This document shows positions 26,014-45,808 of a DNA stretch of 64,000 bases, piece by piece. The notes below the pieces were generated by a model that made no database searches, was not told the DNA's origin, and was given only the letters and a program-made list of their open reading frames with translations. The stretch lies in the NCBI GenBank assembly GCA_015709595.1, contig CP054178.1, positions 1,553,205 to 1,617,204 on the forward strand, given 5' to 3'. Source of the DNA: Phycisphaeraceae bacterium. GTDB lineage: Bacteria; Planctomycetota; Phycisphaerae; Phycisphaerales; SM1A02. Made by a program: the position numbers and the translations under genes. Every line of letters begins with the position of its first letter. Position 1 is the first letter of the stretch.

Positions 26014-26028
26014 GCGCTGCCGCCTGTT

Positions 26029-26059
26029 TCTCCCTCTGGGAGAGGGCTGGGGTGAGGGT
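26029..26059. repeat. REP-B element (TCTCCCTCTGGGAGAGGGCTGGGGTGAGGGT)
   Basis: Short hairpin CCCTCT/AGAGGG followed by a GGGGTGAGGG box, 16 nt after the lepA stop. Related copies lie at 28810 and 43381. Confidence 0.7.
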
Positions 26060-26180
26060 CTCTGCAGTGTTCAGTCGTGGAACGCAGGGCTCCCCGATGG
26101 TGTCCTTCCGGTACATAGAATCGTCTCACACCCGCCGCGGGCACGCCACGTCGGTACGCCCCGGCGACAAGGAAACCGCC

Positions 26181-26909: not shown

Positions 26910-26959
26910 TGGGTTCAATCCTTTCAGTCCACCGACGAACTTGGATGAAGCGGGATCAT

Positions 26960-27023
26960 CCGGGTGGCGCAGGCGCGAGCGCCACAGGCGTCCGTGGCCA
27001 AGGCGTCCCACCTGTGATCCTTC
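26960..27023. repeat. REP-C element, long variant, upstream of glbO
   Basis: CCGGGTGGCGCAGGCG...GGCGTCCCACCTGTGATCCTTC shares both ends with the copy at 27585-27617. Confidence 0.65.
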
Positions 27024-27087
27024 CTGTACGCTCAGCTTCACTCCGCGCCGTCGTCGCCACGTGTCTCGAACCTCATTCACTTCATCG

Positions 27088-27543
27088 GTGCTCATCCGTG
27101 GACCACTCCTGAATCAAGCCGTGGACCTGACGCAACCCCAGCCCCAGTCGAGTCACCCCTTCAGCGCGACGAACACGCCGTTCGACTCGCTTGGCGGCAT
27201 CGACCGCGTGCGCAACCTGGTGGACACGTTCTACGACCACATGGACCGCGACCCCGCCTTCGCGGGCATTCGCGCCCTGCACAAGCCCGACCTGAGCGAA
27301 GCCCGCGACAAACTCTTCATGTTTCTGTGCGGCTGGATGGGCGGGCCGCAACTCTACGTGGAGCGCTTCGGCCACCCGCGCCTGCGGGCGCGCCACGCGC
27401 CGTTCCCCATCGGCGAATCGGAACGCGACCAGTGGCTGGCGTGCATGGCGAAGGCCATGAATGACTGCCGCGTCGAGGGCCCGCTGCGCGCGTTCCTGGA
27501 TGCCCGCTTCGGCCACGTGGCGGAGTTCATGCGGAATCGGTGA
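27088..27543 (+). CDS. glbO: Group II truncated hemoglobin (GlbO-like)
   Basis: FDSLGGIDRVRNLVDTFYDHM...FMFLCGWMGGPQLY...GHPRLRARHAPFPIGESERDQWLACM is classic trHbO sequence. There is no in-frame ATG near the N-terminus, so GTG at 27088 or 27121 is assumed. Confidence 0.75.
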   Translation: MLIRGPLLNQAVDLTQPQPQSSHPFSATNTPFDSLGGIDRVRNLVDTFYDHMDRDPAFAGIRALHKPDLSEARDKLFMFLCGWMGGPQLYVERFGHPRLRARHAPFPIGESERDQWLACMAKAMNDCRVEGPLRAFLDARFGHVAEFMRNR

Positions 27544-27584
27544 ATGGTTGCTGCTTCGGTGGCACACGCGAACATTCCGCCACT

Positions 27585-27617
27585 CCGGTGGCGCAGGCGT
27601 CCCGCCTGCGATCCTTC
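27585..27617. repeat. REP-C element (CCGGTGGCGCAGGCGTCCCGCCTGCGATCCTTC) downstream of glbO
   Basis: Contains the hairpin GCAGGCG-TCC-CGCCTGC. Same orientation as the 26960 copy. Confidence 0.7.
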
Positions 27618-27993
27618 TCGTTCACTTGGCCGCGTCACCAGCACCGGCTACCCTCACCGCGTCGCCATTCCCTCAACCAGGAGGTGCGTGTATGTCCGCC
27701 ATCACCCTTGTCACCGTCGGCCCCCGTCGCCGCGACGCTCGGGCTTGATGCGCACGCACGCCTTGGCTTGGCTCTGACCCCCCGGAACTTCGGAGACTCC
27801 GAAGCCGGGAACTTCAGGGCAGCGCAGAAGAACTCCGTGACGCACCACCCGCGCCGCACGCACCCGATTCGGGCGCGTGCCGCATGTCGTGCGACGCGTG
27901 GGCCGAACGCTCACACCGTTCACCCCCCCACGTCCGCCCACGCAATGCTGCCGCGCGCTCTCGCGGCGCCCGGCACGCACGGAGCCACACGCC

Positions 27994-29124
27994 ATGCACG
28001 GCGATTCCACGTTTCACGAAGCCCTCTCCGACCTGTTCGACGGGGGCTGGATCGATGAGGTGCTGTACGAAGTCAGGAGCGGCAAGGAGGCGACGGTCTT
28101 CTGCTGCCGCGCCGGCGCTCGATCACTGGAGCGCCTTTCGGAGTTCTCGACGCCCCATTCCACCGCCCCTCGGCTCTCAGCCGACATCCTCCTCGCCGCC
28201 AAGGTCTACCGCGACCTTGAATCCCGCCGCTTCAAGAACGACGCCATCTACCAGACCGGCCGCGTCCACCTCGCCCGCGAGGGCCGCGTCAAACGCGCGG
28301 CGGACAACAAGTCGCACTTCGGCCGCCAGGTGCAGTACGGCATGTGGATCGAGCACGAGTGGGAAACGCTGAGGGTGCTGCACGAGGCCGGGCTGCCCGT
28401 GCCCGCCCCCATCGCGCGGGGCGAGCGGGCCATCCTGATGACCTACTTGGGCGACGCCGACGGCCCCGCGCCGGCCCTGGCCGAGATCGACCTGCCCCGC
28501 GACCAGGCGTGGGACACCTTTGACCACCTGCTCGACGCCGTGTTCGCCATGCTCTCGCTCGACCGCGTGCACGGCGACCTGTCGGCGTACAACATCCTGT
28601 GGTGGCCCACCGGAGGAGCGGAGAGTGCGAAGGGCGCGGGGGGTGCCGGGGAGCGCGGACGTGCCGTCCGCGCGGGTGAGGTGGACCCAAGGAGCGAGCG
28701 CGGACGTTCCGTTCGCGCGGGTGAGGTGGACCCAAGGAGCGAGCGCGGACGTTCCGTCCGCGCGGGTGAGGTAGGCGCCGGGAAAACCAAGGCGGGAATC
28801 TCTGAACAACTCCCTCTCCCACCGGGAGAGGGTCGGGGTGAGGGCGTTCCTCGGCCGGAAACGACGCTCATGAGGCATTCTATCGATGCACGGCAGGATT
28901 GTTCGGAGGTCCCATTGGCGCACCGGGCGACGATCATCGACTTCCCGCAGGCGATCGACCCGCGGCTCAACCCCGCCGCCCGCACGCTGCTGGCCCGGGA
29001 TGTCGCCAACCTCTGCCGCTGGGCGGCGAAGCAGGGCGTACCCGCCGCCGCCTGCGACGGCGCCGCGGCGGAGCGGATCACACGGACGATGTGGGGGCGG
29101 TTTCGGGTGGGGGAGGTGGGGTAG
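27994..29124 (+). CDS. RIO1-type atypical protein kinase with a repeat-derived insertion in the catalytic core
   Basis: EVRSGKEATVFCC, LAAKVYR, catalytic HGDLSAYNILWW and metal-binding IIDFPQAID. About 95 aa of repeat-encoded sequence lies between the last two motifs. Confidence 0.8.
   Translation: MHGDSTFHEALSDLFDGGWIDEVLYEVRSGKEATVFCCRAGARSLERLSEFSTPHSTAPRLSADILLAAKVYRDLESRRFKNDAIYQTGRVHLAREGRVKRAADNKSHFGRQVQYGMWIEHEWETLRVLHEAGLPVPAPIARGERAILMTYLGDADGPAPALAEIDLPRDQAWDTFDHLLDAVFAMLSLDRVHGDLSAYNILWWPTGGAESAKGAGGAGERGRAVRAGEVDPRSERGRSVRAGEVDPRSERGRSVRAGEVGAGKTKAGISEQLPLPPGEGRGEGVPRPETTLMRHSIDARQDCSEVPLAHRATIIDFPQAIDPRLNPAARTLLARDVANLCRWAAKQGVPAAACDGAAAERITRTMWGRFRVGEVG
28651..28772. repeat. 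45-bp tandem repeat x2.7, each unit holding a 9-bp-stem hairpin (GCGCGGACG-TTC-CGTCCGCGC)
   Basis: Units at 28651-28695, 28696-28740 and 28741-28772. In frame they give ERGRAVRAGEVDPRS x3 inside the RIO kinase ORF. Confidence 0.9.
28810..28846. repeat. REP-B element (CTCCCTCTCCCACCGGGAGAGGGTCGGGGTGAGGGCG) inside the RIO kinase ORF
   Basis: 9-bp perfect stem CCCTCTCCC / GGGAGAGGG with loop ACC. Translates as LPLPPGEGRGEGV. Confidence 0.8.
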
Positions 29125-29701
29125 GGTGACGCGAACTCGTGACACAGACGGGTTATGCTACGAGCGGGTCAGCCCGCGACCTCGTCGCGGCGCTCGGCGG
29201 GCGACATGGCTTCGGGATCGTCGTGATCGAGGCGCAACGACATCGCGGACTCCTTTCCGGAGCGTGGATAGGCGACCGTCCGTGGTCGGTCGATCGTGCT
29301 CGGGTTCGTTGCGGCTGTTAACCGCAGCCGCCTACTGGATACCTACGCGATGGCGAGGCGGAGTTGCGGAGCAGCAGATCAGTGCCAGCGCAGAAACTGA
29401 TCGGCAGGGGGCGGAACTGTGGTGACATTCAGATGCGAATCTAGCAGTGGGAGCAGCACCGATGGTGCTGATGCGAACTGCCAACCGTTCGGGATTGGTG
29501 CCAGAGTGAAGGATGGTCACTACTCCGCGATCCTCCCGACGGCCACGGGCCTCAAGACAACCACCTCACATGTCAGGCGAGATCCCGATCACTGGTGCGA
29601 CTGTAGCCGCACACCAGAGGCGACGAAGCGACAGCGCGCTCGCGAGCCGCATGCGGCATCGCAAACAGCGATCGCGGATCAGTAGCGAACGAGGGCCACG
29701 A

Positions 29702-29902
29702 TCAGTCTTGGCGTGTGAGCACCTTAGCTGCGATCTTGGTGCCTTCGACCGCTCCCTTGGCGGTCTCCTTCGCCACATCACCGGTTACCTTCCCCACCTG
29801 GTAACCGACCTTCGCGCCTTCGATGGTCCCTTTGAGCACGAACTTCCCCACCATGCCAGCCACCGAACCAGATGCATCCAGTAAATCACCAATGAGTCCC
29901 AT
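29702..29902 (-). CDS. Small Gly/Lys/Val-rich protein (66 aa), hypothetical
   Basis: MGLIGDLLDASGSVAGMVGKFVLKGTIEGAKVGYQVGKVTGDVAKETAKGAVEGTK... AGGAGG sits 8 nt upstream of the ATG. Non-Arg composition in a lower-GC patch. GKVTGD is faintly CsbD-like. Confidence 0.5.
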   Translation of the reverse strand: MGLIGDLLDASGSVAGMVGKFVLKGTIEGAKVGYQVGKVTGDVAKETAKGAVEGTKIAAKVLTRQD

Positions 29903-30480
29903 CGCCGAGGCCTCCTAAAGTGAGAATGCGGAGTGACAACTGCAGGAGGGTAGGATCAGACTGACCGAAGTTCCATGTACGCACCGGGGTGCCCAAGGGC
30001 CTTCTGCCCCCCAACTACGGGCTGCGATTTCCTCGATCTGAAAGGCCACCGAGAGCAACCCTGCTGTTAAATTCGCGGGGGTTGTCAACCAGAGAGCGCG
30101 AGAGTTCGAGAGGGTTGCGCTCGGTAGCCCGAGAGGAACCGTGGGGGTTGCGCTCGGACCCCGAGATTCGGTTTCGGAATCGAGAGCGCGGCCGTTCCCG
30201 GCCGATCGTCGGAAACCCTCGCGGTGACGGCACTTTGGCGCGATCTCGGCCGAGGCGTCCTCTCAGCTCAATCCGTCAACCAGCGGGTCGCCGTACTTCC
30301 GCGATTATGGGCAAACTCCCCAAGACAGTCTCGAACCCGCCACCCACAGGTGAACAGCCATGATCCGTGTTGGTGGCCCCTGCCCCAGATCATGCGGCCA
30401 TTCTGGTGGTGGTTCGCTTCATGTCAACTTGTCCTCTCACAGAATGTGGACAACCAGTGAACAACTCGCCCTCAGGCCTC

Positions 30481-32352
30481 TCACGAACCCCCCGCCACCG
30501 CCTTCCCCTCGCTCTCCGCCAGATCCTCCGTCTCGCCGCTGGCGTCGCCGCCGGGGGCGGTGGGGATGACCGGGGCCACCTTGGCGGCCTCGCGGTGGAG
30601 GGATTCCACGGACGGCGCGACCTCGATGCCCGTCGCGCTCGCTCCCGTTCGCTCTCCACCACGACTGGCACCCACCCCCGCTCCCTCACGGTCGCGGCTC
30701 GCTTTCAGGCCTGGGCTCGCTTCCCGCTCGTGGCTCGCTTCGCCATCGAGTATCGACGCAGGCACACTCCCACCCGCCGGCCCAACCGCTCCCTCACGGT
30801 CGCGGCTCACTTCTTGGTCGCGGCTCGCTTCCGGACCTGGGCTCGCGTGCGCTTGCACGAACTCCGCTCCCTCACGGTCGCGGCTCGCTTTCAGGCCTGG
30901 GCTCGCTTCCCGCTCGGGGCTCGCTTCGCCAGCTCCCTTCCGCTCCACCAGATTGATCCGCCGCCACGGTCCGCGCTCGAAGCGCCAGGCCATGGTCAGC
31001 CCGAACAGAATGATGTACACGCTCGCGCCGATCCACGGGCCCACGCTGGTCCACTGGGGCACGTACTCCACCAGCAGCCAGCCGCCCAGCACGATGAAGA
31101 CCCACGAGTAGATCATGGTCATCACGCCGGGCCACACGGTGTCGCCCGCGCCGCGCAGGGCGCCGGAGTACACCACGCCCAGGGCGTCGGCGGTCTGGAA
31201 GATCGCGGCGCAGATCATCAGCCGCGCGCCGATGGCGATGATCTCCTGGCGCATCTCGGGCGTCACGTTCTGACCACTGGCGAACACCGCCACCAGCGGT
31301 TCGCGGAAGAAGTACATCGCCACCGCGCAGATCGTCATGTAGATCATCGACACCGACAGCCCAAGCCGGGCCCGATGGGCGGCGGTGTCCGGCTGGCCCG
31401 CCCCGATGTAGCGGCCGACCAGCGAACTCACGGCCACGGAGAACCCCACTGCGGGCATGAACGACAGGTGCATGTAGCCCAGCACCGCCCAGCCGGCGGT
31501 CATGTGGTTTTCGCCGAAGCGGCCCACGAGCACGCTCATGAAGATGAGCCAGCAGATGATCTCGTTGCCGAACTGCACCGCCGCGGGCCAGCCGATGCGC
31601 AGCAGGTCGCGCATGGGCGCCCAGCGGGGCCTCCAGGCGGTGCGGCTCCTGAGGGTCTTGTTCAGCCCCGGGCCGAGGAAGATGGCGCAGGGAATCAGCA
31701 GTTCGCAGGTGGTGCCGATGATGGTGCCGATCGCGGCGCCGTACACGCCCATCGCGGGAATGCCCAAGGGCTCCACGCCGAAGATGAACACGAAGTTCGC
31801 ACCCACGTTGACCAGGTTGCCGACGATGGCGGCGACGGTGATCACCTTGGGCCGATGCAGCCCGAAGAAGAAGTGGTGCATGGCGCGGCCCACCAGCAGC
31901 AGCACGCCGCCAACCAGCAGAATCTGCGCGTAGCCGGTCTCCAGGCGCACCAACTCATCGGAGTGACCCATCCAACTGAACACCAGCGGCGAGAGAGCCG
32001 CCATCGGCAGCAGGATCAGCGCCCACATGGCGATGCTCAGCCACACGCCCGCCCAGGCGTACTGGGGGCCTTTCTCCGGCTGCCCCGCGCCCAGGTTCTG
32101 CGACACGTAGGTGTTGATGACCGTGAGCACGCCCAGCCCGAAGGCCATGGGGGTGAAGGTCCAGATGCCGCCGTTGCCCTGCGCGGCGACCTCCAGCGCG
32201 CCCACCTGGGCCACCATGAGCTTGTCGATGAACTGCATGACCGTGTAGCTGGTCATGGTCAGCACCGTGGGCCACGCGATCGCCCACACCTCGCCCAGGG
32301 GCGAACGTGGCGGCGTGAAACCATCCTGCGATGTCGGTGCTGGCGCAGTCAT
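30481..32352 (-). CDS. MATE family efflux transporter with repeat-derived C-terminal extension
   Basis: WPTVLTMTSYTVMQFIDKLMVAQVG..., 12 hydrophobic segments and YSGALRGAGDT. Start set at MTAPAP (32352), because the track N-terminal extension overlaps der. The last 150 aa or so are encoded by REP-A copies. Confidence 0.85.
   Translation of the reverse strand: MTAPAPTSQDGFTPPRSPLGEVWAIAWPTVLTMTSYTVMQFIDKLMVAQVGALEVAAQGNGGIWTFTPMAFGLGVLTVINTYVSQNLGAGQPEKGPQYAWAGVWLSIAMWALILLPMAALSPLVFSWMGHSDELVRLETGYAQILLVGGVLLLVGRAMHHFFFGLHRPKVITVAAIVGNLVNVGANFVFIFGVEPLGIPAMGVYGAAIGTIIGTTCELLIPCAIFLGPGLNKTLRSRTAWRPRWAPMRDLLRIGWPAAVQFGNEIICWLIFMSVLVGRFGENHMTAGWAVLGYMHLSFMPAVGFSVAVSSLVGRYIGAGQPDTAAHRARLGLSVSMIYMTICAVAMYFFREPLVAVFASGQNVTPEMRQEIIAIGARLMICAAIFQTADALGVVYSGALRGAGDTVWPGVMTMIYSWVFIVLGGWLLVEYVPQWTSVGPWIGASVYIILFGLTMAWRFERGPWRRINLVERKGAGEASPEREASPGLKASRDREGAEFVQAHASPGPEASRDQEVSRDREGAVGPAGGSVPASILDGEASHEREASPGLKASRDREGAGVGASRGGERTGASATGIEVAPSVESLHREAAKVAPVIPTAPGGDASGETEDLAESEGKAVAGGS
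30678..30931. repeat. Cluster of three REP-A copies (30678, 30786, 30864); first and third are extended 68-nt near-identical units 186 bp apart
   Basis: CCGCTCCCTCACGGTCGCGGCTC was read three times. Copies 1 and 3 continue identically through GCTTTCAGGCCTGGGCTCGCTTCCCGCTCG. Confidence 0.9.
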
Positions 32353-32641
32353 GCAAGAACCGGGGTTGTGGGGTGATGAAGGGGTGAGTGTAGCCCCCCG
32401 GACGGGTTGGTCGAGGGGCGGTCTATCGGGGGACGCTCCGGCAGTTGAGGATGAAGCCGCGGCGGCGCGGGGGCCCCGCCATCCCATCCGGCAATGGCCC
32501 GGCAGTGGCCGGGAAACCACGAGTCGCCGCGCGGCAGGCGGCCAGGACGTGTCGCCAAAGAGCGGAAATGGCGACACGTTGTTCGCATGTGTCGCTGTGG
32601 ACGACCGGTGGCTTGTCGCCCCCCGCCTATCATCCCCGTTC

Positions 32642-34123
32642 ATGCCCCTGCCCCAGGTTGCCATCGTCGGCCGGCCGAATGTCGGCAAGTCCAGTCTGCT
32701 CAATGCCTTGAGCGGGCGGCGCGTGTCGATCGTCGATCCCACGCCGGGCGTCACGCGCGACCGGGTCTCCTCCATCATCGAACTCAGCGCCCCCGCCGAG
32801 ACGCCGCGAGGCACCCCGGGCCGGTGGGTCGAGCTCATCGACACGGGCGGGTACGGGGTCTACACCGCCGAGGGCAAGCGGTTTGATGATGTGGGTGTGG
32901 ACCTGTCGGCCCTGACGCCCGGGATTGAACAGCAGATTCGTTTCGCGGTGGAGAAGGCGTCGCTGGTGCTCTTCATCATCGACGCCCAGACCGGGTTGAC
33001 GCCGCTGGATGAGACGGTCGCCGGTCTGCTCCGCAAGGGGGGGCATGCCGACAAGGTGCAACTGGTCGCCAACAAGGTGGATGATGAATCGTGGGAGTCG
33101 CACGCGGCGGAGGCCGCCTCGCTGGGGCTGGGCGAGCCGCTGGGCGTCTCCGCCACCACGCGATACGGTCTGCGGCGGCTTTCCGAGCGGGTGTACGAAC
33201 GACTGGGGGGCGTCAAGGCGGCTCGCAAGGACGCGGAGCCGGACAAATCCGAACTCACGTTCGCCATCGTGGGCAAGCGCAACGCGGGCAAGAGCACGCT
33301 CATCAACGCCTTGGCGGGCGAGGAGCGGGTGATCGTGTCCGAGATCGCCGGCACCACGCGCGACTCGATCGACGTGCGCTTCGAGATCGAGGGGCATACC
33401 CTGGTCGCCATCGACACCGCCGGGCTGCGCAAGCGCAAGAGCATTCACGAGGACGTGGAGTACTACTCGCTGCGCCGGGCCCTGGCGGCCATCCGGCGGG
33501 CGGACGTGTGTGTGCTGCTGATCGACGCCACCGAGCCGGTGTCGCAGGTGGACAAGAAGCTCTCGCAGGAGCTGCAGGAGCAGTTCAAGCCCACGGTCAT
33601 CGTGGTGAACAAGTGGGATCTGGCGGCGAAGAAGGGGCTGAAGCCGGAGGACTACGCCGAGTACCTGACCGCCGAGCTGCGCGGGCTGGACTACGCGCCG
33701 GTGGCCTTCATCAGCGCCAGGTCGGGCGAGGGCGTACGCGATCTGGTGGCCATGACCATCAACCTGCACCAGCAGGCGTGCCACCGCGAGAGTACGTCGA
33801 ACCTGAACGAGGCGATCCGCGGCATCATGGCGGAGCGCGGACCTTCGTCACGGTTGGGTACGCAGGCGCGGGTGTATTACATCAGCCAGGTGGCCACGAA
33901 CCCGCCGACGATCGTGCTGATGGTCAACGATCCGAAACTCTTCGAGGGGCAGTACGAGCGATATCTGCTCAACCGCCTGCGCGAGGAGCTGCCCTTCAGC
34001 GAAGTGCCGATCCGGCTCTTTTTCCGCCCCCGCAAGCGCATGGAACTGGGCGCGATGAAGCACCGCGGGCGTCGCCGCGAACAGACCACGGAGTTCGGCG
34101 AAGAGGTCGGCGACGAGTCGTGA
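32642..34123 (+). CDS. der: Ribosome-associated GTPase Der (EngA)
   Basis: Two GTPase domains, VAIVGRPNVGKSSLLN and FAIVGKRNAGKSTLIN, plus a KH-like C-terminus. Start at MPLPQVAIVG. Confidence 0.95.
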   Translation: MPLPQVAIVGRPNVGKSSLLNALSGRRVSIVDPTPGVTRDRVSSIIELSAPAETPRGTPGRWVELIDTGGYGVYTAEGKRFDDVGVDLSALTPGIEQQIRFAVEKASLVLFIIDAQTGLTPLDETVAGLLRKGGHADKVQLVANKVDDESWESHAAEAASLGLGEPLGVSATTRYGLRRLSERVYERLGGVKAARKDAEPDKSELTFAIVGKRNAGKSTLINALAGEERVIVSEIAGTTRDSIDVRFEIEGHTLVAIDTAGLRKRKSIHEDVEYYSLRRALAAIRRADVCVLLIDATEPVSQVDKKLSQELQEQFKPTVIVVNKWDLAAKKGLKPEDYAEYLTAELRGLDYAPVAFISARSGEGVRDLVAMTINLHQQACHRESTSNLNEAIRGIMAERGPSSRLGTQARVYYISQVATNPPTIVLMVNDPKLFEGQYERYLLNRLREELPFSEVPIRLFFRPRKRMELGAMKHRGRRREQTTEFGEEVGDES

Positions 34124-34219
34124 CGCATTCCGGTTGTCAGTCGTCAGAATCCGGAACTCCATACACCCCAGTCCTCTGCTCTCGTTCCCCGTTCCCCCGT
34201 CCCCTTTCTCCCATGAGTC

Positions 34220-35581
34220 ATGTCCGTTCCCACCGACCTCGACTACGCGCTGGATGATCACGGGACGGAGCGCCCCATCGCCGAGATCGCGCGGTCGTTC
34301 ACGCTCGATCCGCGTATTCCTGCGCTCGTGCCGGGGTTCGATGCGCCGTTCTTCCAGGCGGGGCTGGCGGGATATTCCGACGGGGCGATGCGCCTGATCG
34401 CCCGGCGGCATGGCTGCCCCTTCTGCGTCACCGAGGCGCTGCTCGATCAGACGCTCATCAACGGCGGCAAGGGGCGCACGCGCGAGGATCCCGACCTGCT
34501 GGCCGAGGAGTGCGGCACCGGCGATCCGGACGAGAACATTCCCGGCTCGGCGCGCGGGCTGGTGGATCATCCCATCGCCGGGCAGATCATGGGCACGTTT
34601 CCCGATCAGATGGCCCGCGGGTCGCTGCTGCTGGTGGGCATGGGGCACGACGTGATTGATGTGAACCTGGCCTGCCCGGTGAAGAAGATTCGCCGCCGGT
34701 CACGAGGTGGGCACTTCCTCATGGACCCGGTCGGCGCGATAGAAGTTCTGCGAGCCGTGCGCCAGGCGGTTCCGTCGCATGTGCCCTGCACCGTGAAACT
34801 CCGCCGCGCGTGGGACGACACGCCGGAGATGGCGCGCCACTTCGAGCGCATCTTCGAGGCGGCGTACGAGCTGGGCTATGCGTGGGCGACCGTGCATTGC
34901 CGCACTGTGGTGCAGAAGTATCATGGGCCGGGTCGCTGGTCATTTCTGCGCGACCTGACGCGACGCTACCCCGATCGGCTGATCTTCGGCTCGGGCGACG
35001 TGTGGCGCGTGGAGGACATCTTCGCCATGCTGGACCTGACGGGTGTGCATGCCGTGAGCGTGGCCCGCGGGTGCATCGGCAATCCGTGGATCTTCCGCCA
35101 GGCGCGGGAGTTGATGTCCGGAATGAGGATGGCAGGCGGGACGCCCGCCCCACTGACGCCCACCCCGCCGATGTCCGCCACACCGACGCGCGAAGTGAGC
35201 CGCGACCGTCAGGGGGCGTATGACCCACACGAAGTGAGCCGCGACCGTCAGGGAGCGGATGACCCACACGAAATGAACCGTGACCATGAGGGGGCGTATG
35301 ACCCACACGAAGTGAGCCGCGACCGTCAGGGAGCGGATGACCCGTTCACTCCGACGCCGCCCACCATAGACGAGCAGCGCCAGGCCCTGCTGGAGCACTT
35401 TGACCTCGCCGTCGCCTTGCACGGCGAGCGATCCGCCTCGCAGCAGATGCGGAAGTTCGGCATCAAGTTCAGCCGCCATCACCCGCGGGGCGAACAGGTG
35501 AAGGCGGAGTTCATCCGCTGCAAGACCGTCGCCGACTGGCGCGCCGTGGTGGAGCGGTGGTACGCAAATCTTTCGGAGTGA
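34220..35581 (+). CDS. tRNA-dihydrouridine synthase (Dus family) with a 39-bp tandem repeat insertion
   Basis: LAGYSDGAMRLIARRHG, AGQIMG, IDVNLACPVKKI and TVKLR are Dus TIM-barrel motifs. The insertion lies between the barrel and the helical domain. Confidence 0.85.
   Translation: MSVPTDLDYALDDHGTERPIAEIARSFTLDPRIPALVPGFDAPFFQAGLAGYSDGAMRLIARRHGCPFCVTEALLDQTLINGGKGRTREDPDLLAEECGTGDPDENIPGSARGLVDHPIAGQIMGTFPDQMARGSLLLVGMGHDVIDVNLACPVKKIRRRSRGGHFLMDPVGAIEVLRAVRQAVPSHVPCTVKLRRAWDDTPEMARHFERIFEAAYELGYAWATVHCRTVVQKYHGPGRWSFLRDLTRRYPDRLIFGSGDVWRVEDIFAMLDLTGVHAVSVARGCIGNPWIFRQARELMSGMRMAGGTPAPLTPTPPMSATPTREVSRDRQGAYDPHEVSRDRQGADDPHEMNRDHEGAYDPHEVSRDRQGADDPFTPTPPTIDEQRQALLEHFDLAVALHGERSASQQMRKFGIKFSRHHPRGEQVKAEFIRCKTVADWRAVVERWYANLSE
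35192..35345. repeat. 39-bp tandem repeat x4 built on REP-A in reverse orientation (GAAGTGAGCCGCGACCGTCAGGGRGCGKATGACCCACAC)
   Basis: Units start at 35192, 35231, 35270 and 35309. They translate as EVSRDRQGAYDPH / EVSRDRQGADDPH / EMNRDHEGAYDPH / EVSRDRQGADDP. Confidence 0.9.
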
Positions 35582-35829
35582 GGCGTGCGGCAGCCCTCTT
35601 TCCGTGAGGCGTCTGGTCCACGATGGACACGGATGAATGGGATCGGCGGGGCCGATGGCGAAAGCCGGGACCGCGGCGTCAGCACTGGTCCGCTGGACCA
35701 GTCCGTGCGGGGGATCACTTTTTCCCACGAGTTTGTCACACTCTGGGGTCGGCGAACGCCCATATCTGGAGAGGGGCGCGATGGGCTGAAGCCGCCGGGG
35801 CGCTCACCCGCGGCACGTTTCTCAACCCC

Positions 35830-36672
35830 ATGATCGATCCGACGGGACCGAACGGCATGGTGGACCTGGGAGTCAAGATCGACCTCAATGACCTCGTTGC
35901 CGCGGCGTCAGAGCCCGGTGGAGAACTCCTTCCGTTTCTGTCGCCCGAAGCGCCGCCTCCGATACCTGACGCGGTCGTTGAAGCACGTCAGCGCATCATC
36001 GTCGCTCTTGTGCGGTACAACGAGCAGTTGGAGCACGTGCTGCCTGGCATCGTTTACCGCAGTCTGGATGCCAAGCAGTCGCTGCGCTCCGCGTCATTTC
36101 GTGGGGATTCCGCCGCGGCCGCACGCCACCATTCGGAACGGGTGCGGCTGCGGCGGGTGCTTTTTGACCTGAATGAAACGGCGGCACAGGAGATCGCCAT
36201 CGCCGTTCGGGAGATCGACAACGACAGCGCCGTCAGGTGGCTGCGCCGAGTCGATCAGGCCCACTTCCCGGAGACCATGCGCACCACCACCGTTGACATG
36301 ATGCAAACGTGGCTGACGGGGCGCGATCTTGATGAGACGACAAGGGTGAGGGTTCAAGCGGCGTACCGGTCGTTTGTACCGGTCCGCGACGCCATCTGGC
36401 GAACGGCCAAGCCACTGGTTCTGCGGATGCACGACGAAGTGTCGATGTACGTCGCCGGATCGGAGAATAATGATGTCTTTGAGAGGCTTGATGAGGTCGA
36501 TGCGGCCATGGCACAAGCGTGCGCCACAGCTCATGCTTCCGTCATCACGCTGCTGCCGCCGGAGGAGCAGACGGCGTATCGAAGTGCCTTATCGCGGCTT
36601 GAAGGTCAGCCGGGACCGGCCTTCGACATCCGAGAAGCACTGAGGCGCCGCCGCGATTCCTCTCTCCAGTGA
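35830..36672 (+). CDS. Hypothetical alpha-helical protein
   Basis: 280-aa ORF from MIDPTGPNG. No family recognised. Segments such as DLDETTRVRVQAAYRSF and LLPPEEQTAYRSAL echo the helical domain of the 37077-38741 protein. Confidence 0.45.
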   Translation: MIDPTGPNGMVDLGVKIDLNDLVAAASEPGGELLPFLSPEAPPPIPDAVVEARQRIIVALVRYNEQLEHVLPGIVYRSLDAKQSLRSASFRGDSAAAARHHSERVRLRRVLFDLNETAAQEIAIAVREIDNDSAVRWLRRVDQAHFPETMRTTTVDMMQTWLTGRDLDETTRVRVQAAYRSFVPVRDAIWRTAKPLVLRMHDEVSMYVAGSENNDVFERLDEVDAAMAQACATAHASVITLLPPEEQTAYRSALSRLEGQPGPAFDIREALRRRRDSSLQ

Positions 36673-36902
36673 GGGCGCGCTCACGATCATAACGAGGTCG
36701 GTGCGTTGCGTTGGGATTCCCCTCTCAACCCCAGCACGGGCGAGTAGCGTGGACACGCCGCTTTGGGCTTGGTCCCGCGCCCGTTTCGCTCGTGCGGGGC
36801 AACCACCGGCAACGCAGGGCCGTGGCCCATGCCACCCGAGGCGCTTCGACTGGACGGATACCTTTCGATGAGCGCGGCAGCGAACCCCCTTCTGCCAAAG
36901 AC

Positions 36903-36924
36903 AACGCCCGCATTCGCGGGCGTT
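36903..36924 (-). terminator. Hairpin AACGCCCGC-ATTC-GCGGGCGTT, likely the original terminator of the epimerase gene
   Basis: 9-bp perfect stem. On the minus strand it is followed by GTCTTTGG, and it lies 45 nt downstream of the displaced stop codon copy at 36969-36971. Confidence 0.4.
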
Positions 36925-36968
36925 GACGTGAATCAAGTGTCATGTGCCGGCACGACAGAGGCGCGAAT

Positions 36969-37018
36969 TCACCACCCCTTCCGCCCCCGCCCCTTCGCCG
37001 CGCTCGTCGCCCGCGCGG
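36969..37018. repeat. Direct repeat, left copy (displaced duplicate of the last 16 codons plus stop of the epimerase gene)
   Basis: 47/50 identical to 40410-40459. On the minus strand it reads TARATSAAKGRGRKGW-stop, versus AARATSGAKGRGRKGR-stop at the real gene end. Confidence 0.85.
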
Positions 37019-37076
37019 TGGACAGTTTCCTCACGCGCATGCATTTCCGCAGCGCTCGCCTTGACTGTTGCACCGA

Positions 37077-38741
37077 TCACTTCAACGGTGCCGGCAACGG
37101 GTACTGCTCCTGTTGGCTCTGAGTCAGACTCCGAAATGCGAGCTCGCACGTCGCATTGATTTCACGTCGTCGCTGCACCATCAGATCATCCATCCTCCGC
37201 TGGGAGGCATCCATTCGGTTCATCTTCGCCGCCGGGTCGCGAACCGACAGCATGGCTTCCACGCGGTCGTCGCTGGCGTTGGTGATCGCCAGGTGAAGTT
37301 GCTTCACGGTGTGGACATGATTCTGCCTCAACGTCTCAAGGGCCGCACGCTGGTCATCGTTGATGGACACCTCGTTCAACAGCAGGTCAAGGTACCTGAG
37401 CGCGTGATCGGCCTGGTGCTGAAGCCACAGCGTGCGGCGGCCATCATATCGCTCGCGCAGCGCCTGGGCATCATCGGCCGATAGCATCTCCGTGATCATG
37501 AGGAGGTAGTTTCGATTGAGCACGCGAATTCGCTGGTGGTGTTCATATTGTTCTTTGATTCGACGGTCCCACTCTCCGGCGCCGCCGTGCAGCCCCTGCA
37601 CCCAGACACTGCTGCCATCCGTCCGCGAGTGCTCGGCGATGCGTTTCCATTGATGGCGCATCTCTCCGACCATCCATGCTCGACGGGCCAGGAGCGCCTC
37701 GTTGAGCAGCCGTTCGTACTCGTTGACCAGGATCACGAACTGGTCAGGATCACGACTCTGTTGTGGAGTGATCTTCAGTACTTCGAGAAGATCAAGCACA
37801 TCGATCCGTTCCTCACTCAGGATCCCAGCCGGGACAAGGTTGCGTCGAGTGTTCCACTGCCGCCACCGCCTCCAACCATCCTGCTGATCGTCACGCATGA
37901 CCGCCATGAGGGCCTCGATCGCCGCCCCGTTGCGCGCCTCCTGTTGCTCGGCGCACTCCGAGATGAATCGCTGCCATTCGAGGTTGCCGACATGGTACTC
38001 GAGAGAACCGTGCCGTTCATTCTCAAATCGGTTCTTGATGGCCTGCTCGTTCGTTCGCTGTGACTGGACCCACTCGCGGAAACCCGACTCGAAGTCGCGA
38101 TAGATTGCGTCGACCAAGGATTGCTGCTCCGGATCAAGGTCCGCGATGATGATGAGGCGGTCCAAGGCAGCCCGGGAAACCTCCATGCTCCAGGGGCGCT
38201 CGTCCGGCATCGCCCATTGACCCCGAGCGGATGAAGCGACCAGAACCGGTGCGATCAGGATCGTCAGATGACAGCTGAGTTTTGCGGATGATCCGAGAGG
38301 GATGGTCGCGTGTGTCGTCGATCGGGCGCACCAGAGAAGGGCGCCAATGAGAAGAAGATTCCGGAGCACGCCCGCTCCGGGACTGCCGGTCGCCCACCAT
38401 TGGTCGAGTGCACCGAAACACCCACATTCAGCGGACGGGTTCGTGATCCAGATCGCGACAAGATACACGGTGAATCCAGCAATCAAGACGGCGCTGGCGT
38501 ACAGTGCGTTCACGACTTGACGTCCGACAAGCAGACGGACACCGAGCCCGATCTCGATGCCGGATATCGCGAGGATTGTGAATCCAGCAAGGGATCGGCT
38601 GACGCCAACTCCGACGAGCGCCAGAATGCCATCGCCAGGATCGATGGCCTTCAGTAACCCAGCGATACCGATCAGCGCCCCTGCCAGCATGGCGACGAGA
38701 CGCTTGCCCAACGGAAGCGGCATACTGGGGGTTCTCATCAT
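37077..38741 (-). CDS. MauE/DoxX-like membrane domain fused to a long helical domain with LTXXQ-like repeats
   Basis: Four N-terminal TM helices and the motif SAECGCFG typical of MauE-family proteins. About 390 aa of helical sequence follow, with LDPEQQ, ITPQQS, LSADDAQAL and INDDQRAAL, which are CpxP/Spy-like LTXXQ motifs. Confidence 0.6.
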   Translation of the reverse strand: MMRTPSMPLPLGKRLVAMLAGALIGIAGLLKAIDPGDGILALVGVGVSRSLAGFTILAISGIEIGLGVRLLVGRQVVNALYASAVLIAGFTVYLVAIWITNPSAECGCFGALDQWWATGSPGAGVLRNLLLIGALLWCARSTTHATIPLGSSAKLSCHLTILIAPVLVASSARGQWAMPDERPWSMEVSRAALDRLIIIADLDPEQQSLVDAIYRDFESGFREWVQSQRTNEQAIKNRFENERHGSLEYHVGNLEWQRFISECAEQQEARNGAAIEALMAVMRDDQQDGWRRWRQWNTRRNLVPAGILSEERIDVLDLLEVLKITPQQSRDPDQFVILVNEYERLLNEALLARRAWMVGEMRHQWKRIAEHSRTDGSSVWVQGLHGGAGEWDRRIKEQYEHHQRIRVLNRNYLLMITEMLSADDAQALRERYDGRRTLWLQHQADHALRYLDLLLNEVSINDDQRAALETLRQNHVHTVKQLHLAITNASDDRVEAMLSVRDPAAKMNRMDASQRRMDDLMVQRRREINATCELAFRSLTQSQQEQYPLPAPLK

Positions 38742-38763
38742 GCATTGACCCCTGTACGGGCAA

Positions 38764-39090
38764 TCACTGGCACGTGGTGCCGGTCAGATAGGCGCCCTCG
38801 CAGTACTCGTAGGCGATCCAATCGCTCTCCGCAGCGTACGTGCCGGATGAACAGCCGAACCACTTCACGAAGACCCAAACACGGGTTCCGGTGCCGTAGC
38901 ACTGCGTCTTGCCCTGACCAACGGCGGGGACGCACTTCAGCATGTTGACCCGTCCGCGCACGCACATGGGTCCGCTCGTGCTATCGGGGCATGTGATGGG
39001 GTCACAGTCGGCTGTGCCGCACACGTAGTCGAAGACGGCCTGATAGCAGCCGAGCGGCCCGCCGCCTCCGGGATCCTGAGCGGCCAGCAT
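38764..39090 (-). CDS. Small cysteine-rich protein (108 aa, 10 Cys)
   Basis: C at positions spread through ...GCYQAVFDYVCGTADCDPITCPDSTSGPMCVRG...KCVP...QCYG...FGCSS...EYCEG...TTCQ. The in-frame sequence upstream of the ATG encodes a signal-peptide-like ARIILVAFTIAAAGMLAA but has no start codon. Confidence 0.5.
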   Translation of the reverse strand: MLAAQDPGGGGPLGCYQAVFDYVCGTADCDPITCPDSTSGPMCVRGRVNMLKCVPAVGQGKTQCYGTGTRVWVFVKWFGCSSGTYAAESDWIAYEYCEGAYLTGTTCQ

Positions 39091-40205
39091 GCCTGCGGCG
39101 GCAATCGTGAAAGCGACGAGGATGATTCTTGCGTGAGTACTCGTCGTCCAGTCTCCTGCTTTTGGGGTCGATTCGGAGCTCCTGTGCCCAGAAAAGTGAA
39201 CCAGGCGATCAATGCCGTCAGTCCAAGACGTACCAGCAGGGCTGTTGAATCGAAGGCATTGCGATCGATGGCTGGCGCGTCATCTTCCCGTTGAAAGCGT
39301 ACTGTTTCCGTAGAACTCGACCAATCGCCCTGTCCGGTCAGGTCGTAGTAGGTCAGTGGCTGATCGGGTCGGAAGGCAACGAAGATCCGCGGAACGTCCT
39401 GTGGCGTTGCCGGAAGGCGAAAGTCATCCGAAGCAATGCCGCGAAACCGGATCCGAATCAACCATGTATTGCCGATCCTCAGGTTCTTGCGGATGAGCAT
39501 CCACTCGCCTTCTGATCCGTCCGGCTGGGCGTGTACTTGCCACAATGAAATGTCGGCGTTGTTCTGCGCGTCCCGAGCGGCCGCGATCGCCCTGATGTGC
39601 CGGTATCCGGCCGGCGCCTCTGGGAGTGGCTCGATGGGGACCAAGTCTCCGTAGGTCTTCGCGAATGCCTTCACTGGATCGCAGGTGAAATCGAACACAG
39701 TTTCCGCTGTTCGGAGACCGCCAACATTCGGAGCGCTGTATGGCGATCGTTCAATCTCCATGCGATCCCATCCGTTGCCGAACCATGCCAGTTCGCGGCA
39801 ACGTCCGATGAATTGCGTGCCGATCGGAAAGTCATGGCGGTCCGACCTGGGTCGATGAAACCACTCCCACTTCGACAGCGAAGGATGCGATCGGAAGTTG
39901 ACGTATTGGAACGAAACGCCGGCTTCGCCACCCCAGATCAGTCCGTCGAACAGAAACCCGCCGTGTTGTGGCTCAGTGGTGGACTGCAAGTCCGGAGAAG
40001 GTCGCATCGTCGAAAACAGGATATCATCTGCAACGGAGTCGATACGCCGCGCGAATCCGTAGACCTCGAATGCCCGTTCAGACTTGAGATTTGTCGGTGG
40101 TGACTCGACCGGTGGTGTTGTCGGCTGCTGCCAAGACAACGAAACCAGCAGAGCCATCAGTGCGGTGAAAGACCAAGTCGACGTCATGCGCCACCCCGAG
40201 AGCAT
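38937..40205 (-). CDS. Secreted hypothetical protein with C-terminal TM helix; the 3-prime 150 nt are probably not genuine coding in this frame
   Basis: Signal peptide MTSTWSFTALMALLVSLSW, a Trp/Phe-rich beta-looking body, and TM LGLTALIAWFTFLGTG. The tail QESSSSLSRLPPQACWPLRIPEAAGRS... overlaps the Cys-rich ORF and looks out of frame. Confidence 0.55.
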   Translation of the reverse strand: MLSGWRMTSTWSFTALMALLVSLSWQQPTTPPVESPPTNLKSERAFEVYGFARRIDSVADDILFSTMRPSPDLQSTTEPQHGGFLFDGLIWGGEAGVSFQYVNFRSHPSLSKWEWFHRPRSDRHDFPIGTQFIGRCRELAWFGNGWDRMEIERSPYSAPNVGGLRTAETVFDFTCDPVKAFAKTYGDLVPIEPLPEAPAGYRHIRAIAAARDAQNNADISLWQVHAQPDGSEGEWMLIRKNLRIGNTWLIRIRFRGIASDDFRLPATPQDVPRIFVAFRPDQPLTYYDLTGQGDWSSSTETVRFQREDDAPAIDRNAFDSTALLVRLGLTALIAWFTFLGTGAPNRPQKQETGRRVLTQESSSSLSRLPPQACWPLRIPEAAGRSAAIRPSSTTCAAQPTVTPSHAPIARADPCACADGSTC

Positions 40206-40409
40206 GCATTTCGGAGGGTTTCCGAAGACAATGCCACGATAACGCTGCAGAACGTCGTGTCAAGCGGGAATTGGGTGACCCCCCCCGAGGCGAGCATGGA
40301 AGTCACTTTCCAACAACGGGTTGTGGCTGATCGAACTTTCTGCGTCTTTTTGCGATTGCTCAACTTCCGGAGATCATCAGCAGCTCGGCGCGTCCTCCTC
40401 AACGGCCCC

Positions 40410-40459
40410 TCACCGCCCCTTCCGCCCGCGCCCCTTCGCCCCGCTCGTCGCCCGCGCGG
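40410..40459. repeat. Direct repeat, right copy (actual 3-prime end of the epimerase gene)
   Basis: See 36969-37018; 47/50 identity. Confidence 0.85.
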
Positions 40460-41636
40460 CCGCCTTCTTCTTCCCGCCGCCTTTGGCTGACGCCGGCTTG
40501 GCCGCCGTCGGCCGCGGGCCGTACCCGGCGGGGATGCCCTGCTTCCACGTGTCGAGTTTGCGGCTCTCGGCGATGTAGCCGTCGCCGGGGATCGGCTTGG
40601 ACCCGTGGGTGAACGCGCTCACCTGGCTCTTGTGGGCCGTGCGGGCGGTGTACTTGGCGGTGAACTCGTCATGAATCCAGCGATAGGTTTTCTCCATGCC
40701 CACGCGCAAGGATGTGTCCGGCTCCCAGTTCAGATACGACTTGATCTTGGTGTTGTCGGAGTTGCGGCCCGCCACGCCGCGCGGCGCATCGAGCTTGTAG
40801 TGGCGCTCAAGCGTGATGCCCGCGATCTCCTCCGCGATATCCACCAGCTGGTTGATGGTCACCAGTTCCGACGAGCCGAGGTTGATGGGTTCGAGGATGT
40901 CCGAGTTGGTGATGAGGTTGATGCCCTTCACGCAGTCGTCGATGTACATGAACGAGCGGGTCTGCGTGCCGTCGCCCCAGATCTCGATGTCGTGCTTGCC
41001 GGAGATCTTGGCGGCGATGACCTTGCGGCAGATGGCGGCGGGGGCCTTCTCGCGCCCGCCCTCCCACGTGCCGTTGGGGCCGTAGACGTTGTGGAAGCGG
41101 GCGACGCGCGTGGCGATGCCGAAATCCTCGCGGAAGTGGCGGCACATGCGCTCGGAGAAGAGCTTCTCCCAGCCGTAGCCGTCCTCCGGCAGGGCGGGGT
41201 AGGCGTCGGCTTCCTTGAGCGCGGTGACGTGAGGGTCCTTCTGCTTGTCGGCGTTGTACACGCAGGCGGAGGAGGAGTAGAAGAAGCGCTTCACGCCCGC
41301 CTCCTGCGCCGCCAGCAGCATGTGGGTGTTCACCAGCACGCTGAGCATGCACAGGGCCTTGTTGTTCTCGATGAAGCCCATGCCGCCCATGTCGGCGGCG
41401 AGCTGGTAAACCGTGGTGGCGCCGCGGCAGAGCTTGCGGCAGACCTTGAAGTCGCGGCAGTCGCCCCGCAGGGGGCCGGCGTAGTTCTCCACGTCGGGGA
41501 AGACCTGATACCACTCGTCCAAGGGCTTGATGTCCGCGGCGCGGATGGTCTTCACGCCCTGCTGGCGGAAGTAGTTGACCAGATGCCCGCCGATGAACCC
41601 GCCGGCTCCGGCGATGACGACGACTTGATTCCTCAT
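40410..41636 (-). CDS. GDP-mannose 3,5-epimerase-like NAD-dependent epimerase with Lys/Arg/Gly-rich C-terminal tail
   Basis: VIAGAGGFIGGHL, QLAADMGGMGFI, FFYSSSACVY, YGWEKL and RFHNVYGPNGTWEGGREKAPAAICRK closely follow the plant/bacterial GME pattern. The tail is ...KGGGKKKAAARATSGAKGRGRKGR. Confidence 0.85.
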   Translation of the reverse strand: MRNQVVVIAGAGGFIGGHLVNYFRQQGVKTIRAADIKPLDEWYQVFPDVENYAGPLRGDCRDFKVCRKLCRGATTVYQLAADMGGMGFIENNKALCMLSVLVNTHMLLAAQEAGVKRFFYSSSACVYNADKQKDPHVTALKEADAYPALPEDGYGWEKLFSERMCRHFREDFGIATRVARFHNVYGPNGTWEGGREKAPAAICRKVIAAKISGKHDIEIWGDGTQTRSFMYIDDCVKGINLITNSDILEPINLGSSELVTINQLVDIAEEIAGITLERHYKLDAPRGVAGRNSDNTKIKSYLNWEPDTSLRVGMEKTYRWIHDEFTAKYTARTAHKSQVSAFTHGSKPIPGDGYIAESRKLDTWKQGIPAGYGPRPTAAKPASAKGGGKKKAAARATSGAKGRGRKGR

Positions 41637-42000
41637 GACCTCTCCTGAATGCGGCCGCGGAATAGGGACTTCGGACGCCCTGAATCGGGCGCGGGCCGCC
41701 CGACCCGGCTGATCGCCCGTGCGGGGGCGATGGATGGCTCAAGGGCGGAGCGGACCCGCTGTGCTTCTACGAAATCGGTCCGGCACGGGTTCTGATTCAA
41801 TGCCGATGCGCCGGTTCCGCCCACCATCGTGCGATCGGGCCTCACTTCTCGGAACCGGCGACACAACCGCGAGGCCGAATCGAGCGACCCGTCGGCGGTC
41901 GAGTGCGGCGGAGGCGCGTCCTGCCGATCATGGTGATCCGCTGGCCCTTGTCGGGGCCGCCTTGTACCATCGGACAGACCTCAGGGGCACCCACCTCACC

Positions 42001-45516: not shown

Positions 45517-45596
45517 GTGTGCCACGGCCGTCCGAAGGGTGTGCCACGGTCGTCCGAAGGGTGTGCCACGGTCGTCCGAAGGGTGTGCCACGGCCG
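45517..45596. repeat. 22-bp tandem repeat x3.6 (GTGTGCCACGGYCGTCCGAAGG)
   Basis: Units at 45517, 45539, 45561 and 45583 (partial), in the convergent intergenic region after glxK. Confidence 0.9.
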
Positions 45597-45808
45597 TGTC
45601 GGCCGTGCGGGCACGCGGCCAATGTGCGCCGAAGGAAGCGTGGAGTCCCAGAGGTGATGCGCCGCGACGGGGTTCCCGCAGTGTCGTACGCCTCCGGCCG
45701 CTCGCACGGCTGAGACAGCCGTGGCACATGGTGGCGATCGCACCGCGGAACCTCTCCGGATTCTCTCGACGCCCTCCATGACGGGACCGACGCCGGTCTC
45801 CGCGACCC

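Follow-up and report, generated by a model that had tools for sequence, protein, structure and literature searches.

How did a segment of low G+C content carrying three genes come to lie at the very end of a sugar epimerase gene while leaving that gene intact? The question is raised by a 64,000-nucleotide stretch of a Phycisphaeraceae genome (assembly GCA_015709595.1, contig CP054178.1, positions 1,553,205 to 1,617,204 of the forward strand), referred to here as the window, in which a cassette of 3.4 kb is enclosed at 36969–40459 by two copies of a 50-nt sequence. We call the left copy R_L (36969–37018) and the right copy R_R (40410–40459), and use R for the sequence that they share. An earlier note on this DNA had read the arrangement as site-specific integration into a gene 3′ end, with the two copies as attL and attR. 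Our analysis agrees that DNA of foreign composition was inserted where the epimerase gene ends, leaving its open reading frame (ORF) intact, and does not bear out the site-specific part of that reading. In our estimate the odds are about even (roughly 0.5) that the locus is the fossil of a Campbell-type insertion, whatever its catalyst.

The two copies read on the minus strand in the same orientation and are identical at 47 of 50 positions, exactly as the earlier note had it. R_R is functional. It provides the last 16 codons and the stop of the gene for a GME-like NAD-dependent sugar epimerase of 408 amino acids (40410–41636, minus strand; Pfam Epimerase, 4.7e-36; exact protein record QOJ17279.1), and is indeed the true end of this gene, encoding the terminus ...AARATSGAKGRGRKGR of the short-chain dehydrogenase/reductase (SDR) protein. 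R_L, in turn, is a non-coding relic that can still be read to a stop (...STARATSAAKGRGRKGW), as had been claimed. It is separated by a 58-nt spacer (37019–37076, minus strand) from the stop codon of the last cassette gene, which encodes a protein with a MauE domain, and its reading frame is that of the MauE gene, 36 codons past the MauE stop, a coincidence to be expected in one case out of three. Allowing for up to three mismatches, the 50-mer occurs at two sites only in the window, and no match arose by chance in 100 dinucleotide-preserving shuffles. Similarity between the surroundings of R_L and R_R falls to chance level beyond the 50 nt, and at the inner joint of the repeat there is a microhomology of just 2 nt (CC). 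No third copy of R was found in the window or in the strain variants described below.

The origin of the duplicated sequence is indicated by the epimerase itself, which ends in a fast-evolving tail rich in Lys and Arg. Such a C-terminal tail is present in all epimerases that are 76–86% identical to this one, with a wholly different sequence in each. The tail is thus native to the family while its sequence is specific to the lineage, which implies that R_L was copied from this lineage's own gene end. Since the duplicated 3′ end was not seen in any relative with a 76–86% identical epimerase, and these relatives have other tails, the duplication must have been made after separation from them.

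Exact-protein look-ups in many public assemblies defined six structural types of the locus, five of which reach the cassette site. The window type has the arrangement of the window and is also found in the contig L101. In type B (L182, a contig of 257 kb; L091 and others), a Dus gene and a GerE-type regulator gene are followed by genes for a Cys-rich protein of 125 aa, a protein of 384 aa, a DUF1573 protein of 239 aa and a protein of 465 aa, then by a hairpin, R_L, the cassette and R_R with the epimerase gene. The corresponding slot of type D (L196, L197) holds a 344-aa paralogue of the first cassette protein (orf354), a 129-aa protein, a MauE protein of 153 aa and a helical protein; these contigs stop short of R_L. 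Type C (L092, L100) is an internal deletion of type D. One further contig (L205) has a window-type cassette with the second module intact. Finally, lineage E (L198, L203) shares 95.3% identity with the window over the core flank and 97.2% over the cassette.

These variants allow the duplication to be placed in time. R_R is identical in types B and C, and the R_L of type C has three further differences close to its outer end. In lineage E, R_L reads GCGCGGGCGACGAGCGGGGCGAAGGGGCGGGGGCGGAAGGGGCGGTGA, with one mismatch to the R_R of the window, and GGGGC comes next after both, so that the original duplication was near-perfect and slightly longer, about 55 nt. The three mismatches between R_L and R_R in the window are later drift. 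As lineage E also carries a near-perfect R_L, the duplication predates the split between the lineages. The R_R of lineage E has itself changed, since a patch replacing 13 nt with 11 nt abolishes the stop and the tail becomes ...GRGRASQRGR before a new stop. Divergence of the cassette tracks that of the core: type B differs from the window by 0.28% in the cassette and 0.16% in the core, and lineage E by about 2.8% and 4.7%, respectively. This indicates vertical inheritance since before the lineage split.

A search for empty-site alleles, as proposed in the earlier note, gave none. The five structural types reaching the site, the lineage diverged by about 5% among them, each have the cassette. 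The cassette is present on every contig reaching the site, and both repeats are present wherever the contig is long enough, in a sample of well over 100 metagenomic contigs, so that no presence/absence polymorphism is seen among close relatives. An empty site would have the junction ...AAGAAGGCGGCC + R + ATTCGCGCCTCTGTCG, and an excised circle ...GAGGAAACTGTCCACC + R + GGGGCCGTTGAGGAGGACG. The hypothetical epimerase alleles of an empty site, which would end in ...GRKGW, are absent among 15 billion proteins, and the epimerase cluster contains alleles of 408, 413 and 417 aa and one fragment only. The insertion is old and fixed, and apparently immobile. The earlier note had named two observations that would speak against its reading, namely that the three genes lie at this position in every close relative, never with an empty-site allele, and that the repeat is a common low-complexity motif. 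The first is what we found; the second is not.

The composition of the cassette sets it apart from its surroundings. The G+C counts given previously were exact (26/60 at 37501–37560 and 44/60 at 41041–41100), and the cassette is the lowest-GC stretch of 3.4 kb in the window (0.597, compared to a mean of 0.667 with a standard deviation of 0.02). Codon usage, which the earlier note had suggested profiling, agrees with this, as G+C at third codon positions (GC3) is 0.64–0.78 in the cassette genes and 0.83–0.94 in core genes. This intermediate GC3 fits acquisition from a lineage of lower GC. DNA between the copies is AT-richer, as described, but R_L is not the edge of the low-GC3 island, which runs on to about 35785; genes on the outer side of R_L have a GC3 of 0.66–0.72 and are also low. 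Foreign-looking DNA hence extends past R_L, which sits between two accessory modules placed tail to tail. The arrangement as read was reproduced by an independent megahit assembly (L101, 99.99% identical over 24220–40286) and by other independent assemblies, and an assembly artefact was rejected on these grounds.

The cassette had been described as three co-directional ORFs of unknown function. The three ORFs are co-directional, but one of them encodes a recognisable domain. The first, orf354 (39141–40205, minus strand), has a signal peptide and a C-terminal transmembrane anchor, and belongs to a rare family with 14 representatives among 1.84 billion clusters (exhaustive HMMER search). Its AlphaFold 2 model (pLDDT 76) gave no confident match in the PDB, and weak matches to LolA-, RseB- and lipocalin-like structures (TM-score at most 0.2) were not used for function. 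The second, orf126 (38764–39144, minus strand), encodes a secreted protein with 10 Cys. The third (37077–38723, minus strand) encodes a fusion of 548 aa, with an N-terminal MauE/DoxX-type membrane domain bearing a CGCF motif (MauE, Pfam PF07291; 57.8 bits against a cut-off of 27, residues 16–139) and a C-terminal part of about 400 residues that is helical and faintly LTXXQ-like. Non-coding DNA inside the cassette is restricted to 204 nt upstream of orf354 and the 58 nt downstream of the MauE gene.

The closest homologue of orf354 (P0123, 42% identical) is encoded in a planctomycete metagenome-assembled genome, in a group of genes that we call module X. This comprises genes for an extracytoplasmic function (ECF) sigma factor, a 417-aa protein, the orf354 homologue, a Cys-rich protein of 128 aa, a MauE protein of 154 aa and a helical protein of 397 aa. 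Identities between the window and module X were 40% for orf354 (X_332), 63% for orf126 (X_128), 43% for the N-terminal MauE domain (X_MauE154) and 40% for the C-terminal part (X_397), so that the MauE and helical proteins are two genes in module X and one fused gene in the window. The host of module X has a GC content of 57.5%, which the module matches, and neither an epimerase nor an R-like sequence was found near the module, with no such element after its last gene. Conservation of the same gene order in module X shows that the cassette is a conserved functional unit. In the mau cluster, MauE takes part in the maturation of the disulfide-rich small subunit of methylamine dehydrogenase. The cassette resembles that cluster in having a MauE-domain membrane protein with a CGC motif beside a small secreted 10-Cys protein. 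In contrast to it, there are no mau structural genes, the MauE domain is fused to a helical domain of 400 aa, and the orf354 partner is of a rare family. By analogy, we infer that the module would make and oxidatively fold a disulfide-rich secreted protein. We did not find relevant literature on MauE, DUF1573 and Planctomycetes.

In agreement with the earlier note, Pfam scans found no integrase, transposase or excisionase within the 64 kb. The scans covered about 37 ORFs with a coding-like GC3 pattern, and most of the others were covered by Pfam labels already computed on overlapping contigs; the products recognised in the window are housekeeping or regulatory, such as ParB, histidine kinases, ATP synthase, enolase and MotAB. 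A recombinase is lacking both inside and adjacent to the cassette, which its three genes occupy fully, leaving no room for one. Terminal inverted repeats were not found at the cassette ends (alignment score of 6 compared to a shuffle mean of 7.3), Rfam returned nothing over 35000–42000 at E-values up to 1, and two degenerate patterns of R had no match in IMG/VR. There was likewise no match for the MauE fusion in plasmid records (tblastn) or for the cassette DNA in phage records (blastn). Two common classes of element were rejected accordingly. A transposon or insertion sequence with target-site duplication would have a transposase, terminal inverted repeats and a short duplication of 2–15 bp rather than one of 50 nt. 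For an integron gene cassette there is no IntI, R is not palindromic, and no Rfam hit was obtained.

R_L also marks the border of a second slot, extending from the GerE-type regulator gene to R_L, where like modules are exchanged or deleted between strains. The breakpoints between types B and C lie 12 nt past the GerE stop and 2 nt past the R_L stop. The second module of type D (L196:495-2867) consists of paralogous orf354, Cys-rich, MauE and helical genes, convergent with the cassette, and type C retains from it a gene of 356 aa (L092:4535-5605) in which the first 77 codons of the 344-aa gene are fused to the helical C-terminus; of those 77 codons, the last 62 are identical to the beginning of the called type D protein. 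The window type equals type B minus 3.3 kb. Lost with this deletion were the GerE-type regulator gene, the genes for the Cys-rich 125-aa, the 384-aa and the DUF1573 proteins, and the 5′ end of the gene for the 465-aa protein; its junction lies at a microhomology of 10–13 nt, GGCGCGATGG (35772–35784). What remains of the second module (35785–36968, plus strand; GC 0.635, GC3 0.70) is the 3′ two-thirds of the 465-aa gene and the hairpin region, and orf349 (35623–36672) is the fusion remnant of the deletion.

This exchange slot has features of the flexible or replacement genomic islands, which are swapped between strains by homologous recombination in conserved flanks. As in those islands, alternative gene sets occupy the stretch from GerE to R_L (125-384-DUF1573-465 in type B, 344-129-MauE-helical in type D), breakpoints are sharp and fall at gene ends, and divergence of the flanks is patchy. 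However, that model leaves the 50-nt duplication unexplained. A tandem accretion model, in which a third R would lie at the far side of the outer slot, was rejected because no type has one.

The hairpin that the earlier note took for the original terminator of the epimerase gene is present, with a stem of 9 bp (36903–36924; AACGCCCGC-ATTC-GCGGGCGTT), between convergent genes and 44 nt past the R_L stop. A diverged version of the hairpin region follows R_L in lineage E, which makes the role of ancestral terminator plausible; the region is absent in type C, and replaced in types C and D.

How, then, was the cassette inserted? In the reading that we prefer, a horizontally acquired three-gene envelope module would have been inserted into the chromosome right where the epimerase ORF ends, through a single Campbell-type crossover of the chromosomal gene end with a stretch of identical sequence on circular incoming DNA. 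This would have duplicated about 50–55 nt, from the last 16 codons through the stop to a few bases past it. R_R would have kept the epimerase intact, and R_L would have been left as a non-coding relic free to drift. That the intermediate was circular, how the step was catalysed and in which direction events ran are inferred from the scar. Catalysis by a recombinase, acting in trans or since lost, is a possible though uncertain version of this Campbell-type insertion, and integration by host homologous recombination is one that we regard as rather doubtful. Like the linear route discussed below, the latter agrees with the illegitimate deletions and patchy recombination tracts of the locus.

The footprint is close to that of genomic islands, integrative and conjugative elements (ICEs), as well as integrative and mobilisable elements (IMEs), which integrate at gene 3′ ends, such as those of tRNA and tmRNA genes or, for ICESt1 and ICESt3, of fda, and rebuild the end. 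The locus shares with them a direct repeat of tens of bases, with one copy rebuilding the 3′ end of the target as the functional gene end, cargo of atypical composition between the copies, and an intact target. Another typical trait of elements that rebuild a target gene is that the repeat ends only a few bases from the stop codon. Unlike these elements, the cassette has no integrase, excisionase or transfer genes, is tiny (3.4 kb) and filled by one module, and shows neither presence/absence polymorphism nor dyad symmetry. We are not aware of a cognate ICE or IME sharing this target specificity.

Several observations weigh against a Campbell-type insertion. The step is read from its footprint, and no empty site, excised circle or cognate recombinase was seen. 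The nearest relatives, with epimerases 84–86% identical (JGI name, GDP-mannose 3′,5′-epimerase), have glycosyltransferase genes downstream and no synteny, so that they document no ancestral empty state; scans of GTDB species representatives and of JGI metagenomes, with the epimerase as query, gave best matches of at most 81% identity, with no synteny, and were uninformative for an empty site. R is strongly strand-asymmetric, with 30 G in 48 nt of the coding strand, and its longest internal palindrome is 4 nt and its best dyad score 6/10, a weak test as the crossover position is not known. Both the poor dyad symmetry and the strand asymmetry are atypical for core sites of tyrosine or serine recombinases. 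For RecA-driven integration, on the other hand, 50–55 nt is short. Finally, a route through linear DNA would give the same scar.

That linear route, by homology-facilitated illegitimate recombination, is the alternative that survives best, even if we consider it fairly improbable. The donor would already have carried the cassette after its epimerase stop, one end of the incoming DNA would have recombined by homology, inside the epimerase gene or upstream of it, and the other, 58 nt past the MauE stop, would have joined illegitimately 47 nt before the recipient stop, so that the gene end of the recipient itself remained as R_L. The process, reportedly described in naturally transformable bacteria by de Vries and Wackernagel in 2002, places foreign DNA beside a homologous anchor and creates partial duplications without a recombinase, typically at joints with 3–10 nt of microhomology. 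The locus likewise has foreign DNA beside a homologous anchor and a partial duplication, and would need no recombinase. The outer edge of the repeat, within about 5 nt of the stop, is where homology between donor and recipient would naturally end, and the same edge is the breakpoint of types B and C. Moreover, the locus has undergone one deletion at a microhomology and a second deletion that produced a fusion, and patchy divergence, strongest across the junction and the 3′ half of the epimerase gene, suggests recombination tracts ending there. However, this route demands two events, an earlier clean insertion in the donor and then the transfer, the 2 nt of microhomology (CC) at the cassette joint fall below the typical range, and no donor-type allele, with a cassette but no R_L, was found among all the variants.

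The cassette could also be a still-mobilisable element without an integrase, for which R_L and R_R would act as functional attL and attR and the integrase would come from elsewhere in the genome or from an incoming element. Cis-mobilisable elements (CIMEs) are defined as elements that lack integration and transfer genes but retain attL and attR (PMC5704250). The cassette likewise has flanking repeats and no recombination gene, and the repeats would be att sites only if a recombinase acts on them. The canonical footprint, a direct repeat restoring the 3′ end around cargo of foreign composition, is present, and the strain-variable slot adjacent to R_L is reminiscent of the accretion arrays that build up at att sites. 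Nevertheless, we consider it improbable that the element is still mobile. No mobilisation is evident: there is no presence/absence polymorphism in well over 100 contigs or across lineages diverged by about 5%, and no empty-site epimerase allele among the 15 billion proteins. The copies have drifted apart, by three mismatches and by the patch in the R_R of lineage E, R lacks dyad symmetry and is absent from IMG/VR, and no third att copy bounds the neighbouring segment on its far side.

A more general proposal would be that the last 50 nt or so of the epimerase gene are a reusable docking sequence for cassette exchange in Phycisphaeraceae, either free of a recombinase or catalysed in trans. If true, such a docking system would insert or swap paralogous envelope modules, each pairing a Cys-rich secreted protein with a thiol-redox partner, at gene-end copies of R, with the G tract described below as an expression switch. 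We give this idea little credence.

Very unlikely, in our view, is that R_L is all that is left of another epimerase gene, which arose by recent duplication, lay past the cassette and was deleted almost completely. Deletions are frequent in the locus, and the inner edge of R_L bears no relation to codons or structure. But there is no further trace of an epimerase upstream of R_L, and no relative has tandem near-identical copies, the adjacent epimerase paralogue in L012 being only 23% identical. A duplication would moreover have to be followed by a deletion ending precisely 58 nt past the MauE stop. The least credible explanation is that the 50-mer is a selected or converted nucleic-acid signal (G-quadruplex, Rho-related or for mRNA stability), for although the coding strand of R has five G-tracts of at least three, both copies lie at 3′ ends of co-directional transcription units and the R_L of lineage E, being nearer to the window R_R than to its own R_R, hints at conversion, R_L gains substitutions freely between strains, replacement of one third of R_R is tolerated in lineage E, Rfam gives no match, no other copy lies in the 64 kb, and module X lacks such an element after its last gene.

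Apart from the question of mechanism, the epimerase gene has a history of its own. When the window type is compared with types B and C, its 3′ half and the junction (40500–41000) show 10–20 times the divergence of the adjacent core or of the cassette, including a 15-nt in-frame indel at 40481. The pattern suggests a recombination tract that may have been imported from a more distant strain. In the nearest relatives (L192:11306-15547, L193:11340-14702; epimerase 84–86% identical), the divergent pair of UGDH and epimerase genes is kept, and the epimerase gene is followed by genes for a GT4 glycosyltransferase, a hexapeptide transferase and a GT2 glycosyltransferase. This suggests that the epimerase gene originally headed a polysaccharide operon, since lost or relocated in this species.

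Between R_R and orf354 there is a hypervariable G:C tract (40284–40291). The window and types B and C have G8 there, and lineage E has G8TG6TG6TG6TG5. The tract precedes a sigma-70-like match upstream of orf354 (TTGACA-16-TATCGT, 40236–40263, minus strand), a consensus match only, with 1 found against 1.2 expected. Window-type short-read contigs that reach the tract (6 of the 10 listed, and L101) end there with 18–53 G, and the other four stop at most 12 nt short. Either the window sequence greatly understates the true length of the G tract, or these are poly-G sequencing artefacts. The tract is a possible site of phase variation or G-quadruplex formation. Contig breaks past the epimerase gene had been considered as a sign of insertion polymorphism; this was rejected since all fall at the G tract and not at the repeat.

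The cassette genes themselves show signs of decay. In the window strain, a single-nucleotide polymorphism (SNP) at 39143 changes the ATGA overlap of stop and start, kept in types B, C and E, to ACGA. With its stop mutated, orf354 reads on to 38937 (422 aa), and the gene for the Cys-rich protein loses its start codon (ACG here, ATG in types B, C and E) and with it the signal peptide. Since L205 carries the SNP but not the 3.3-kb deletion, the SNP preceded the deletion. In lineage E, the 10-Cys gene has an in-frame TGA at its second conserved Cys codon (L198:6586-6588 and the same site in L203, orthologous to about 39021 of the window), which turns YVCG into YV-stop-G in two independent samples. 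This is probably a nonsense mutation, although a Cys/Sec pair is conceivable. The island looks dispensable.

Repeats of other kinds occur elsewhere in the window. A 23-nt repeat (CCGCTCCCTCACGGTCGCGGCTC) has seven copies, at 22471, 30667, 30775, 30853, 48162, 49271 and 49313, and its reverse complement, with one mismatch, is the core of an in-frame 39-nt tandem repeat (35191–35343) inside the Dus gene; the copy number of this tandem repeat varies by strain (453 aa versus 440 aa). There are two intergenic tandem arrays, one at 45517–45597 with a 22-nt unit (GTGTGCCACGGYCGTCCGAAGG) in about 3.7 copies, and one at 28651–28785 with a 45-nt unit in three copies.

A scar of insertion at a gene 3′ end without a recombinase is a known kind of thing, and the finding does not open a long-standing question; what we describe is a new example, embedded in a strain-variable island of rare envelope modules. 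It illustrates that the footprint of a direct repeat and low-GC cargo at a gene 3′ end can outlast mobility, and should not be read as active without a recombinase or an empty site. For this uncultured member of the Phycisphaeraceae, the locus is a small strain-variable island with two tail-to-tail slots for rare modules, each made up of a disulfide-rich secreted protein, a redox partner of the MauE or DUF1573 type and a helical protein. Strains differ in these modules by swaps, deletions and point inactivation, which makes the island useful for tracking strains and a starting point towards an envelope system that is so far uncharacterised.

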